From assembly GCA_030430565.1 (NCBI GenBank), contig JAUIKS010000004.1, positions 205,992 through 269,991 on the forward strand: 64,000 nucleotides of DNA. The letters are read 5' to 3'. Under the pieces are notes generated by a model. That model was not told where the DNA came from. It ran no database searches and was given only the letters and a program-made list of their open reading frames with translations. Shown here piece after piece: positions 25,932 to 30,882 of this stretch. The translations under genes were made by a program, and so were the position numbers. This DNA comes from Polyangia bacterium (GTDB taxonomy: Bacteria; Myxococcota_A; Polyangia; Nannocystales; Nannocystaceae). Each line of letters starts with the position of its first letter. Position 1 is the stretch's first letter.

Positions 25932-26915
25932 GTGCGCCAATTCGCGGGAGCCCTCGTCGATCTTAATGTGGGCGTTTTCTACCCTGCTCCGCCGCGACAG
26001 CGTCGCCTCGCCATCGCTGCAGCGCTCGTGTTGGCCTGCGCCTGCGGGCCGCAGCTGGGGACGACCGACACGACCGGGGGGCCAAGCGGCGACGCCTCGG
26101 GAACGCCTGGGAGCACCGGGTCGACGGGCGGCTCGACGGGCTTCGAGACCAGCGGCGCCGACACCAGCTCAGCGCTGACGGACGAGCCGGTCGAGACGAC
26201 CGGCTGCGAGTTCATCTGCGACGACGACCCCGACCTGCCGCCGGGCGACGAGCTGTGCGACATCTTCAACGACGAGTGTCCGGAGGGCCAGAAGTGCGCG
26301 CTGGTCGACACCGACGACGACGGCGGGTGGGACAGCGCGCGGTGCCGGGAGCTCCTCGGCGACGGCCAGCACGATGAACCCTGCGAGGCGTCGGGCGTCG
26401 GCCTCGACACCTGTGGTAAGGGGCATGTCTGCTGGGGCGTCGACGACGACGGCGAGGGCGTCTGCGTCGCGTTCTGCTCCGGCTCCGCGGAGAACCCGAG
26501 CTGCGAGCCAGCGTGCACACGCTGCGTGATCTCGGAGAGCAGCCCGCCGCTGTGCGTCAACAGCTGCGATCCCCTCGGGCAGGGCTGCCCCGGTGAGCAG
26601 GTGTGCATCGGTGACCCCAACAGCGCCGGCTTCCTCTGTGTGCTCGACGCCTCGGGCGGGATGGCGCCCGCGGGCACGCCCTGCGAGTTCGCCAACGTCT
26701 GCAACCCGGGGACCATGTGCGCGAGCACCGACGCGGCGCCGCACCCGGACTGTCAGGGCGCGATCGGCTGCTGCACCCCGTTCTGTAACTACGAGCAGCC
26801 CGACGGGGCCTGCGACGCGCTCGCCGACGAGCTCCCGGACATCGAGTGCGTGCCCTTCAGCGAGGAGCCGGCCGAGTGCGCGGGGCCGGTCGGCGTCTGC
26901 GTCGTGCCGGCATGA
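25932..26915 (+). CDS. Cys-rich lipoprotein, paralog 1 of 5
   Basis: Lipobox 'LVLACACGPQ', S/T/G linker, conserved ~225-aa domain with ~24 Cys ('DECPEGQKC...DTCGKGHVCW...CDPLGQGC...CVLDASGGMAPAGTPCEFANVCNPGTMCA...GCCTPFCNYEQPDGACD...VGVCVVP'); start may be internal GTG. Confidence 0.65.
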   Translation: MRQFAGALVDLNVGVFYPAPPRQRRLAIAAALVLACACGPQLGTTDTTGGPSGDASGTPGSTGSTGGSTGFETSGADTSSALTDEPVETTGCEFICDDDPDLPPGDELCDIFNDECPEGQKCALVDTDDDGGWDSARCRELLGDGQHDEPCEASGVGLDTCGKGHVCWGVDDDGEGVCVAFCSGSAENPSCEPACTRCVISESSPPLCVNSCDPLGQGCPGEQVCIGDPNSAGFLCVLDASGGMAPAGTPCEFANVCNPGTMCASTDAAPHPDCQGAIGCCTPFCNYEQPDGACDALADELPDIECVPFSEEPAECAGPVGVCVVPA

Positions 26916-27892
26916 AGGGGCAGGTCATGAATCGGTCGACGAGCTGGGGTGTACGCGCGCGGGGGACGGCGCTGCCGCTGTGCGGGCTCTTGTGGCTGAC
27001 GGCCTGCGGACCCGAGCTAGCGAGCCCGACGACGAGCGAGGGCGCGGGCAGCTCGACGGGCGTCGAGAGCACGAGCGCGACCCTCGACTCGACGGGGCCC
27101 GGCTCGACGACGGAGAGCGCGAGCACGGGCGCGGTGGAGACGACCGTAGCGCTCACGGGATCCGCCGGCACGACCGACTGCGAATTCATCTGCGAGCACG
27201 ACCTCCCGAAGGACAACATCTGCGACATCTTTGCCCAGGACTGCCCGGAGGGCCAGAAGTGCGCGAGCGTCGACACAATCGGCGACGGCGACTGGAACAC
27301 GAATCAGTGCGTCGAGATCATGGGCGACGGCGAGGCGGGCGAGCCGTGCGCCGCCGAGGGCGCGAGCGGTCATGACACCTGCGCGAAGGGCCACATGTGC
27401 TGGTACCTCGATGAGGAGTTCAACGGCACCTGCGTAGCGACCTGCGCCGGCGCGTCCGAGAACTCGATGTGCGCCGACGACTGCACGCGCTGCGTCCTCG
27501 CCAGCCCGCTCGCGCTCTGCCTGCCAAACTGCGACCCGCTCGAGCAGGACTGCGCCGGCGACGCGCTGTGCATCGGCGACCCCAACAGCGACGGCTTCGT
27601 GTGTGTGCTGGACGCGTCGGGCGGGATGGCGCCGGCGGGTACGCCCTGCGAGTTCGCCAACGTCTGCGACCCGGGGAACCTGTGCATCAACCCGGACGCT
27701 GTGCCGCACCCGGACTGCGAGGGCGGGATCGGCTGCTGCGCCCCGTTCTGTAACTACGAGCAGCCGGACGGGGCCTGCGACGCGCTGGTCGACGAGGTCC
27801 CCAAGATCGAGTGTGTGCCGTACCACGAGCAGCCCCCGCCGCCCGAGAGCTGCCTCGGGCCGGTCGGCGTCTGCGTTGTGCCAAACCCGTGA
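26912..27892 (+). CDS. Cys-rich lipoprotein, paralog 2 of 5
   Basis: ATG overlaps paralog-1 stop (ATGA at 26912-26915); 'LWLTACGPELASPTTSEG' then same Cys-domain. Confidence 0.7.
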   Translation: MKGQVMNRSTSWGVRARGTALPLCGLLWLTACGPELASPTTSEGAGSSTGVESTSATLDSTGPGSTTESASTGAVETTVALTGSAGTTDCEFICEHDLPKDNICDIFAQDCPEGQKCASVDTIGDGDWNTNQCVEIMGDGEAGEPCAAEGASGHDTCAKGHMCWYLDEEFNGTCVATCAGASENSMCADDCTRCVLASPLALCLPNCDPLEQDCAGDALCIGDPNSDGFVCVLDASGGMAPAGTPCEFANVCDPGNLCINPDAVPHPDCEGGIGCCAPFCNYEQPDGACDALVDEVPKIECVPYHEQPPPPESCLGPVGVCVVPNP

Positions 27893-27913
27893 ACGATTGT
27901 TGAGGAGCGAAGC

Positions 27914-28918: not shown

Positions 28919-29875
28919 ATGGGGCAGGGGAGCGGCACCGGACGAAGGACGCGCGCGGCGACGGCGACGCTGCTGCTGCTGTGCGCGGTGGCGTGCGGGC
29001 CCGAGCTGGCGAGCCTGACGACGAGCGAGGGCGACGACGCCTCGACCTCCTCGGACGGCGGGAGCTCGATCGAAGGCTCGACGGGCGGGGGCTCGACGAG
29101 CACGGACTCGACGGGCACGGGCGAGGCCGAGACCACCGCCGCGCTGACGGAGACGGAGTCCGGGGCCGACTGCGTGTTCCTCTGCGAGCCGGACATGCCG
29201 AGCGGGCCGATCCCCTGCGACATCCTGGCCCAGGACTGCCCCGAGGGGATGAAGTGCGAGAGCGTCGACACCGACGGCGACAACTCGTGGGACAGCAACC
29301 TTTGCGTCCCGGTGATCGGTGACGACATGCTCGGCGAGCCGTGCACGGCCGAGCTGGGCGCGACCGGGGTCGACACCTGCGCGAAGGGATATGTGTGCTG
29401 GAAGCTCGATGAGAACGGCGAAGGAACCTGCTTCGCCCACTGCACGGGCACCTGGGAGGATCCGGTGTGCGAGGGCTGCGAGGAGTGCGTGATCTTCTCC
29501 AATGGTGTGATCGCGGCGTGCCTCCCGGGCTGCGACCCGCTCGCGCAGGACTGCGTGGGCGCCCAGGTGTGCATCGGCGACCCGGGAGGCGATGGCTTCT
29601 TTTGTGTGCTGGACGCGTCGGGCGGGATGGCGCCGGCGGGCACGCCCTGCGAGTTCACCAACGTCTGCAACGCGGGGACCATGTGCGCGAACCCAGACGC
29701 TGTGCCGCACCCGGACTGCGCGGGCTCGATCGGCTGCTGCACCCCGTTCTGCGACTACGAGCAGCCTGGGGACACCTGCGACGCGCTGGGGCTGCCGGGG
29801 GTCGAGTGCGTGCCATACGTCGACGAACCAGATGAGAGCTGCGCGTGGGCGGTCGGGGTGTGCGTGATGCCGTAG
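28919..29875 (+). CDS. Cys-rich lipoprotein, paralog 4 of 5
   Basis: 'LLLLCAVACGPELASLTTSEG', same Cys-domain ending 'VGVCVMP'. Confidence 0.7.
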   Translation: MGQGSGTGRRTRAATATLLLLCAVACGPELASLTTSEGDDASTSSDGGSSIEGSTGGGSTSTDSTGTGEAETTAALTETESGADCVFLCEPDMPSGPIPCDILAQDCPEGMKCESVDTDGDNSWDSNLCVPVIGDDMLGEPCTAELGATGVDTCAKGYVCWKLDENGEGTCFAHCTGTWEDPVCEGCEECVIFSNGVIAACLPGCDPLAQDCVGAQVCIGDPGGDGFFCVLDASGGMAPAGTPCEFTNVCNAGTMCANPDAVPHPDCAGSIGCCTPFCDYEQPGDTCDALGLPGVECVPYVDEPDESCAWAVGVCVMP

Positions 29876-29895
29876 CGATTTCAAAGGAGTGAACG

Positions 29896-30882
29896 ATGGT
29901 GCTGCATGACTGGGGAACAATCGGACAACGCGTGGCGCTGCTCGTGTGCGCGCTCGCGTGGGCGCCGGCGTGCGGGCCCGGGGCGAGCGCGACGGCGACG
30001 AGCGAGGGCGAGACTACGGGCGCTGACTCGAGCGAGTCGGGCACGTCGGGCGTAGCGAGCAGCTCAACCAGCGTCGAGAGCACCAGCACCGGCGCGAGCA
30101 CAGGCGCAAGCGCGACGACGACCGCGGGGCTGACGGACGAGCCCCCGGGGACGACGGAGACGACCGGCGCGTGCGAGTTCATCTGCACCGGCGGGCCCGA
30201 CCTGCCCGGGGAGGAGTGTGACCTGTTCACGCAGGACTGCCCGGAGGGCAAGAAGTGCACCAGCGTCGACACCGACGGCGACGGCGCCTGGGACAGCGCG
30301 CTGTGCATGGACATCCTCGGCGACGCGGTGCACGGCGAGGAGTGCTTCACCGAGGACTACAGCGGCGGCCTCGACACCTGCGCCGAGGGACACATGTGCT
30401 GGAGCGTCGACGACGAGGGCTACGGCTACTGCGTCGCGATCTGCACCGGCTCGCCCGAGAACCCGACGTGCGAGCAGGACTGCACCAGCTGCATGATCCC
30501 GGGCAGCGGCGCGATCGCGCTGTGCCTCAGCGGCTGCGACCCGCTCGCGCCGGACTGTCACGACAGCGAGCTGTGCATCGGTGACCCGGGCGGATACGGC
30601 TTCGTGTGTGCGCTGGACGCGTCGGGCGGGGTGGCGCCGGCGGGCACGCCCTGCGAGTACGTCAACGTCTGCAACGCGGGGACGATGTGCGCGAACTTGG
30701 AGTCCGTGCCGCACCCGGCGTGCGAGGGCGCGCTGGGCTGCTGCACCCCGTTCTGCGACTACGAGCAGCCCGGCGGGGACTGTGACGAGCTCAAAGATGA
30801 ACTCCCCGAGATCGAGTGCGTGCCGTACTACGAGGAGCCGGTGGAGTGCGCGGGCACGGTCGGGATCTGCGTGGTGCCGTAG
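29896..30882 (+). CDS. Cys-rich lipoprotein, paralog 5 of 5
   Basis: 'ALAWAPACGPGASATATSEG', same Cys-domain ending 'VGICVVP'. Confidence 0.7.
   Translation: MVLHDWGTIGQRVALLVCALAWAPACGPGASATATSEGETTGADSSESGTSGVASSSTSVESTSTGASTGASATTTAGLTDEPPGTTETTGACEFICTGGPDLPGEECDLFTQDCPEGKKCTSVDTDGDGAWDSALCMDILGDAVHGEECFTEDYSGGLDTCAEGHMCWSVDDEGYGYCVAICTGSPENPTCEQDCTSCMIPGSGAIALCLSGCDPLAPDCHDSELCIGDPGGYGFVCALDASGGVAPAGTPCEYVNVCNAGTMCANLESVPHPACEGALGCCTPFCDYEQPGGDCDELKDELPEIECVPYYEEPVECAGTVGICVVP

Follow-up and report, generated by a model that had tools for sequence, protein, structure and literature searches.

A five-gene tandem array of cysteine-rich predicted lipoproteins from an undescribed Nannocystaceae family, with signs of local expansion and gene conversion

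We analyzed a 64,000-nucleotide (nt) stretch of the genome of a Polyangia bacterium (Nannocystaceae; assembly GCA_030430565.1, contig JAUIKS010000004.1, positions 205,992 to 269,991), hereafter the window, focusing on a tandem array of five paralogous genes that encode cysteine-rich predicted lipoproteins. On the plus strand, from position 25932 or 25968 to 30882, the listing of open reading frames (ORFs) contains five consecutive ORFs with paralogous products (Table 1), and alignment bears out the single architecture ascribed to them by an earlier reading of the DNA letters alone (the sequence-only reading). In full-length alignments, the products share 53-58% amino acid (aa) identity with copy 1 and at most 65% among the other copies. 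The NCBI-called proteins P0006, P0002, P0004 and P0005, from a contig of 473,707 bp, are identical to copies 1, 2, 4 and 5, respectively. Copy 1 has three candidate starts: GTG at 25932, GTG at 25968 and the TTG at about 26030 adopted by NCBI. The NCBI start yields a product beginning MLACACGPQ, in which the signal peptide is lost; GTG 25968 yields MGVFYPAPPRQRRLAIAAALVLAC, with a canonical n-region, h-region and lipobox, and is likely to be the real start.

The stop codon of copy 1 overlaps the ATG of copy 2 in the sequence ATGA at 26912-26915, as previously pointed out, and the remaining copies lie 21, 24 and 20 nt apart; GGAG-like sites precede copies 3 and 5. The ATGA overlap and the 20-24-nt spacers make a single operon plausible, and the array probably constitutes one. 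Consensus scans around the array found no promoter or terminator, and the hairpin between copy 5 and the convergent gene was not better than those of shuffled sequences (z = -0.99). The copies are too diverged to represent a collapsed or duplicated assembly artefact; bearing on the same question, an orthologous array follows the same upstream genes on an independent metagenome scaffold (L079).

Table 1. Coordinates of the five array genes, of the modelled core and of the homogenised DNA block in each copy (window positions)
Feature	Position	Strand	Remarks
Copy 1	25932..26915	+	Most divergent copy; 53-aa Ser/Thr/Gly tether; 236-aa core with 30 Cys; lipobox
Copy 2 (P0002)	26912..27892	+	ATG overlaps copy 1 stop (ATGA)
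Copy 3	27914..28894	+	Closest to consensus; orthologue of L079 gene a (P0001, 85% aa identity)
Copy 3 core, part modelled	28169-28891	+	
Copy 4 (P0004)	28919..29875	+	Relaxed lipobox AVAC; groups with L079 gene b
Copy 5 (P0005)	29896..30882	+	Relaxed lipobox APAC; best match of the single syntenic L001 copy
Homogenised block, copy 1	26634..26807	+	Encodes VCVLDASGGMAPAGTPCEF...YEQP
Homogenised block, copy 2	27599..27772	+	
Homogenised block, copy 3	28619..28792	+	90-94% identical to all other copies
Homogenised block, copy 4	29600..29773	+	
Homogenised block, copy 5	30604..30777	+	

Each product comprises a predicted lipoprotein signal, a low-complexity tether and a C-terminal cysteine-rich core, and several of the motifs initially proposed for them proved to be narrower than stated. 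The signal had been described as ending in L-x-A-C-G-P, but only A-C-G-P is invariant in the five copies, L-x-A-C being restricted to copies 2 and 3 and to an alternative Cys in copy 1. Under a strict, PROSITE PS51257-type lipobox pattern, with a relaxed pattern scored separately, copies 1-3 carry the strict lipobox and copies 4 and 5 only the relaxed one (AVAC and APAC, respectively), aligned on the same A-C-G-P. Across the family, the strict lipobox is found in 77% of 355 full-length members, the residue at +2 is mostly Gly, and no sorting motif follows the lipobox Cys beyond this Gly and scattered Asp residues. On these sequence features, the five products are predicted to be lipoproteins (signal peptidase II substrates). 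The motif TTSEG, also reported as conserved, is exact in copies 2-4, reads ATSEG in copy 5 and is absent from copy 1. The tether that follows (53-67 aa in the five copies, with 60-64% Ser/Thr/Gly and a negative net charge; in the 355 full-length members, a median of 68 aa with 70% Ser/Thr/Gly/Ala/Pro) matches only the low-complexity Pfam entry New_glue, and is plain mucin-like sequence rather than the hypervariable element it had been taken for.

The core spans 234-237 aa and contains 30 invariant Cys in the five copies, where about 24 had been counted. The VGVCVVP-type end, originally identified with the C-terminus itself, is exactly that in copies 3-5, but is followed by A in copy 1 and by NP in copy 2; family-wide, the chain ends in [VIL]-G-x-C-[AGV]-[ILV]-P plus 0-2 residues, with 2-7 residues after the last Cys. 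A CaaX-type reading of the C-V-[VM]-P ends of copies 3-5 was rejected on family statistics, since the last Cys is followed by four residues in 263 of 346 members and by three in only 52 of the 346, and because the proteins are predicted to be exported. The mature products have a net charge of -44 to -51 and only 2-5 Lys and Arg residues combined; the median core net charge is -29 in the family, and the other window proteins have a median charge of -0.011 per residue. The DxDxDG-like motif DTDGDG occurs in copies 3 and 5, the other three copies have a degenerate form of it, and the family consensus retains only DGGxAW.

A word-indexed search returned 338 relatives. A profile search, run exhaustively over 1.84 billion cluster representatives, matched 3190 clusters (50% identity) at E <= 1e-3, of which 1507 remained at a cut-off of 1e-30; almost all are 300-330 aa long and carry the domain at their very C-terminus. 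Among species-representative genomes, at least 481 stretches encode relatives, and the best 78 of these, from about 36 assemblies, make up the loci compared in this work. The named hosts among the 78 loci are Nannocystis (punicea, pusilla, radixulma and bainbridge) and Paraliomyxa miuraensis, and the remaining hosts are Nannocystaceae or unclassified Myxococcota metagenome-assembled genomes (MAGs), one of which, HK-STAS-MYXO-17, contributes 8 loci with at least 15 copies. The sequence-only reading could not place the domain in any named family, and the searches concur: scanning the five copies against Pfam, NCBIfam and PADLOC at lenient thresholds detected nothing but New_glue in the tether, a Pfam scan of 121 aligned members at E <= 1 gave no core match and only the same low-complexity entry, PDB sequence searches with 5- and 121-sequence profiles matched no chain, a cluster look-up gave no name for the window proteins, and we found no description of the family in the literature. 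The family is undescribed and, so far, lineage-restricted, with named hosts that are all Nannocystaceae or unclassified Myxococcota.

Several members carry the label 'ribulose phosphate epimerase' in RefSeq/GenBank (for example P0311, which is WP_266217416.1, P0020 and P0304). We rejected ribulose-phosphate 3-epimerase as an identity, the Ribul_P_3_epim profile being unmatched at E <= 1 in both the five copies and the 121 members and the structural model consisting of beta-hairpins throughout, that of an exported Cys-rich beta protein and not of a cytoplasmic TIM barrel; given the missing profile match, the name is an annotation error, and it propagates across databases. Individual members depart from the standard layout: P0131 has a third copy of the second ~110-aa unit described below, P0185 extends C-terminally beyond the family domain with seven Cys-rich DUF4215 repeats, and P0256, P0013 and P0017 have extra small Cys-rich modules between lipobox and tether.

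Structure prediction, which the sequence-only reading had proposed as a check, was performed with AlphaFold2 on the core of copy 3 using the 121-sequence alignment. The model (mean predicted local distance difference test score, pLDDT, of 91.3; predicted template modelling score, pTM, of 0.76) is composed almost wholly of short beta-hairpins together with two short helices. A Foldseek search of the PDB and of the viral models in BFVD returned no match at E <= 0.001, with template modelling (TM) scores of at most 0.18, so that the lack of a known fold refers to solved and viral structures only. Non-significant structural echoes were seen in follistatin/Kazal, Dickkopf and knottin structures, all small disulfide-rich binding or inhibitor folds, and the model suggests that the core fold is probably new. 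Profile-profile comparison of the N- and C-terminal halves of the core aligned 76 columns at 95.4% probability (E = 1.9e-8), pointing to an ancient internal duplication of a ~110-residue unit with the approximate pattern CDxxxQDC-x2-G-x2-C ... C-V ... PC ... C-x2-G-x2-C ... C-x3-C. Its sub-modules (C-x5-10-C-x5-C-x10-16-C, modelled as beta-hairpins) are reminiscent of knottin, Dickkopf/colipase and follistatin/EGF-like folds, but the whole unit and its duplication are unmatched among these and occur in a bacterial lipoprotein context.

Twenty-six Cys are invariant across the family, and the variable ones co-occur in pairs (C8/C12, phi 0.91; C111/C231, phi 0.89), the second of which is specific to the clade of the window; Cys counts are even in 84% of family cores. 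Paired gain and loss, together with the export signal, argue for disulfides and against metal thiolates, and we infer 13 disulfides conserved family-wide and 15 in the proteins of the window. Thiolate chemistry is the premise of a metal-sequestration role, in which Cu, Zn or Cd would be captured by the ~30 Cys in the manner of metallothioneins or copper-storage proteins. The density of 30 Cys in ~235 residues and an acidic surface that could attract cations are compatible with such a role, but it appears highly improbable in view of the pairing and even counts of Cys, the export signals to an oxidising compartment, the confident hairpin-rich fold predicted without metals, and the absence of CxxC-rich or His-rich motifs and of adjacent metal-resistance genes.

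Elsewhere, at the 78 loci, single genes are the commonest arrangement and arrays hold 2-4 copies, making the five copies of the window the largest array observed. Neighbour-joining analysis of 114 members unites the five window copies with two L079 copies in a clade that contains no other sequence, which identifies the array as a local, lineage-specific expansion and agrees with the proposal of an expanding family. A locus in the more distant HK-STAS-MYXO-17 (L001) has a single copy, closest to copy 5, at the syntenic position. Directly behind it lie orthologues of the genes that span 40.3 to at least 50 kb in the window, and it follows that the ancestral site held one gene. Between L079 and the window, the upstream genes share 85% DNA identity up to window position 25978. 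The segment 25932-25978 is homologous to non-coding DNA upstream of the first L079 array gene, placing the left junction of the expansion at about 25978.

The first gene of the L079 array is the orthologue of copy 3 (85% aa identity); next come a copy-4-like gene and the beginning of a third, and this scaffold lacks copies 1 and 2. Because copy 2 falls outside the pair formed by copy 3 and its L079 orthologue (L79a) in the tree, the comparison suggests that copies 1 and 2 were lost in L079; against this, the scaffold has an N gap in its first copy, and assembly collapse may account for part of the difference in copy number. The copy-3/L79a pair has a dN/dS ratio of 0.275 (dS 0.34), similar to that of the flanking genes (dN/dS 0.29-0.64, dS 0.23-0.37), which indicates ordinary purifying selection and proteins that are not hypervariable. 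Under the scenario we propose, the array would change by tandem duplication and by copy loss through unequal crossing-over.

Superimposed on this divergence is a block of ~175 nt whose pairwise DNA identity among the window copies is 84-94%, versus 67-78% in the rest of the core, in agreement with the near-identical DNA core first noticed in the sequence. The longest exact matches between copies (19-55 nt) all lie inside this block, and a repeat finder delineated five 300-nt copies that are 79-86% identical to the reference copy. We compared four-fold degenerate sites of matching codon families. In the window copies, identity at these sites is 0.86 in the block and 0.59 in the rest of the core, for an expectation from codon usage of 0.36-0.53. 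When the window copies are compared with 107 copies from other genomes, the values become 0.51 and 0.50, and most other arrays show no elevation in the block. An excess among the window copies, with none against the foreign copies, implies lineage-specific homogenisation instead of protein constraint or codon bias, and we attribute the similarity of the block, on this sequence evidence, to gene conversion in this lineage, as had been proposed.

Strong purifying selection on the protein, compounded by codon bias in a 70% G+C genome, would be an alternative explanation for such a block: it encodes the most conserved peptide of the family, the third-position G+C content (GC3) is about 0.9, and window and L079 copies are equally similar in the block. 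We hold this to be very unlikely: the four-fold identity of the block exceeds both the rest of the core and the codon-usage expectation, the 107 foreign copies encode the same conserved peptide and show no difference of that size, and the lack of elevation in most other arrays completes what is largely a refutation. The timing of the conversion is limited by the non-orthologous window/L079 pairs, which reach 0.84-0.91 in the block, as high as within the window; conversion must then predate the split of the two lineages or continue in both. In either case, short-tract gene conversion would keep ~175 nt of the second unit nearly identical.

With regard to function, we tentatively favor a reading in which these are lipid-anchored, probably outer-membrane proteins, each displaying on a stalk a disulfide-locked, trypsin-resistant polyanionic module that binds cations or a cationic or partner ligand. 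Under the Myxococcus sorting rules, Gly at +2 points to the outer membrane, and the products would be exported and lipid-anchored through a lipobox with Gly at this position, most likely in that membrane. A mucin-like, acidic Ser/Thr/Gly tether of ~55-65 residues would then hold, as a flexible and possibly glycosylated stalk, a compact module of ~235 residues, made up of two homologous ~110-residue units of small beta-hairpins that 15 disulfides would lock. Because Lys and Arg are nearly lacking and its net charge is close to -40, the module should be a very stable, trypsin-resistant polyanion. Its most likely role would be that of a tethered envelope or surface module that binds either cations, Ca2+ among them, or some cationic or partner ligand. 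The paralogues differ mainly in the first unit, the second being nearly constant. Several points weigh against this reading. The strict lipobox pattern is failed by copies 4 and 5, no conserved partner gene was found across the 78 loci, and DTDGDG is not conserved family-wide, which weakens the case for Ca2+ binding. Lipidation, outer-membrane location, disulfide formation and the binding function are, moreover, all properties that we only infer.

Much of the same evidence could be accommodated by envelope-tethered inhibitors, modules blocking proteases, lysozymes or lipases secreted by the predator itself or by its competitors, much as lipoprotein inhibitors like MliC shield the envelope, with different paralogues covering multiple enzymes. 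The predicted lipid-anchored and tethered architecture would suit this role, as would a multi-hairpin, disulfide-rich core (whose echoes in follistatin/Kazal, Dickkopf and knottins are non-significant), the near absence of Lys/Arg cleavage sites and the many paralogues per genome that vary mainly in one half. It is nonetheless an unlikely role, since the searches linked the proteins to no inhibitor family at a significant level, the 78 loci have no hydrolase gene as a consistent neighbour, and such extreme acidity is untypical of known inhibitor families.

The description of the family as polymorphic effector-like invites comparison with SitA of Myxococcus, a group of polymorphic lipoprotein toxins with a variable C-terminal toxin domain, each followed by an immunity gene. 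Both are lipobox-bearing, multi-copy myxobacterial families, and outer-membrane lipoproteins are exchangeable between cells. We rejected a SitA-type or polymorphic toxin identity for the array: the C-terminal half is the most conserved part of these proteins, the orthologous pair has a dN/dS of 0.275, no toxin profile is matched, and each gene is followed, after the ATGA overlap or 20-24 nt, by another paralogue and not by an immunity gene. The absence of toxin or defence profile matches and the lack of room for immunity genes in the spacers likewise speak against a toxin-immunity system. The effector-like label finds little or no support, and the other label proposed, adhesin- or receptor-like, is at best weakly supported.

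A broader version of this idea is that the proteins are secreted or transferred effectors, delivering a Cys-rich payload (a knottin-like toxin or signal) through vesicles, outer-membrane exchange or release from the tether, with the array as an arsenal of variants. It draws on the fact that lipoproteins are cargo of myxobacterial outer-membrane exchange (PMC3325183) and on one member, P0213 (L080, 6001-7335), in which a Pretoxin-HINT (PT-HINT) domain ending in VHN lies between the tether and the Cys-rich domain, the latter thus occupying the site of the releasable toxin in polymorphic toxins. This fusion is however unique among 474 relatives and belongs to a lone gene between housekeeping genes, so that we rejected it as a general feature of the family. 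As the C-terminal domain is also conserved and under purifying selection, and the array offers neither immunity-sized genes nor toxin or defence matches, we regard effectors as quite unlikely. A further, speculative proposal would make the ~110-residue double-hairpin unit a new disulfide-rich fold and the family an arsenal of extracellular ligands or toxins that predatory Nannocystaceae would display on their outer membrane or shed from it. In this arsenal, the PT-HINT member would free its domain through autoproteolysis, the first unit would diversify targets and gene conversion would preserve a docking or delivery surface in the second; we give this combination little credence. Our preference stays, tentatively, with the tethered binding module.

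The surface lipoproteins of the Mycoplasma Vlp/Vsp and Borrelia paralogous families evolve by tandem duplication and gene conversion. The array shares with them its tandem same-strand paralogues, low-complexity regions, copy-number change and inter-copy recombination. It differs from both in having a conserved globular 30-Cys C-terminal domain with no sequence relation to them, in showing no phase-variation switch (promoter inversion or repeat tract), and in belonging to a free-living predator and not to a host-associated pathogen. In behaviour it is comparable to other multigene families of surface lipoproteins shaped by duplication and conversion. Closer in phylogenetic terms, TraA and other myxobacterial proteins combine Cys-rich repeats (DUF4215/TIGR02232) with MYXO-CTERM (PMC6372800, PMC3325183). 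They too are myxobacterial surface proteins with presumably disulfide-bonded Cys, and P0185 is fused to DUF4215 repeats; in the window proteins, Pfam and NCBIfam scans at E <= 1 matched neither DUF4215/TIGR02232 (PF13948) nor PA14. Whereas TraA-type proteins have a type I signal and MYXO-CTERM, those of the window have an N-terminal lipobox, and MYXO-CTERM sorting, which involves a Cys-containing C-terminal motif, a membrane helix and a basic tail, was rejected for them: their chains stop 3-5 residues past the last Cys and lack a C-terminal membrane helix.

A family of thousands of clusters thus has no Pfam or NCBIfam model and a wrong RefSeq name, and with at least 15 copies in one assembly it appears to be a major part of the predicted Nannocystaceae envelope proteome. 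Defining it would correct annotation, add a candidate new disulfide-rich fold and open a way to study the cell surface, still poorly known, of these predatory myxobacteria rich in natural products. The array itself illustrates, neatly and on a small scale, how tandem expansion, copy loss and apparent short-tract gene conversion act in a high-G+C genome. It is, at the same time, an undescribed domain family in an ordinary genomic arrangement, in which nothing yet points to a new mechanism and through which no long-standing question becomes testable.

The genes downstream of the array are convergent to it and include two Pyr_redox_3 flavoproteins, in line with the convergent oxidative operon initially described. 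They belong to a minus-strand block of ~9.5 kb (30969-40330) with a G+C content of 0.65-0.68, compared with ~0.71, that also holds a third, Rossmann-like ORF without a Pfam match and a 741-aa ORF without any domain match. L001 lacks the block, and there the family gene directly abuts the orthologue of the alpha/beta-hydrolase gene; the lower-G+C block is therefore probably an insertion, and its convergence on the array, with the adjacency of the flavoprotein genes, is probably accidental. No tRNA gene lies in or beside the block, the only one in the window being at 9001-9075.

Upstream of the array, the set of genes at 22043-25855 comprises a lipoprotein that combines Stig1 repeats and a pentaxin/LamG domain, a membrane protein with DUF3592, an ORF of 132 aa and an AAA_16-like protein of 207 aa that weakly matches the PADLOC entry mad8 (E = 1.2e-4). 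The set is kept in order in L079 and does not lie beside family members in other genomes. Alignment of the family with the neighbouring Stig1/pentaxin lipoprotein is limited to the lipoprotein signal peptides.

Across the 78 loci, the largest neighbourhood cluster is an antisense shadow ORF of the family itself. A minus-strand ORF at 27754-28572 and its equivalents in 49 loci are long, have high GC3 and overlap family genes in antisense; they are shadow ORFs of high-G+C sense genes and provide no evidence of antisense genes. The neighbours that do recur, in about 10 loci, are an NAD-glutamate dehydrogenase (NAD-GDH), a ClpB-like ATPase, a 215-aa ORF and a Ser/Thr kinase, and they seem to reflect nothing more than synteny of a single orthologous locus type. 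Here, the large NAD-GDH and the ClpB-like AAA ATPase precede 2-4 family copies, which are followed by the 215-aa ORF, on the opposite strand and without a Pfam match, and by the Ser/Thr kinase, which has AAA_16 and TPR domains. The arrangement was seen in L010, L014, L020, L025, L026, L033, L040, L044, L048 and L077 (around 1-17000), all from Nannocystis-like genomes.

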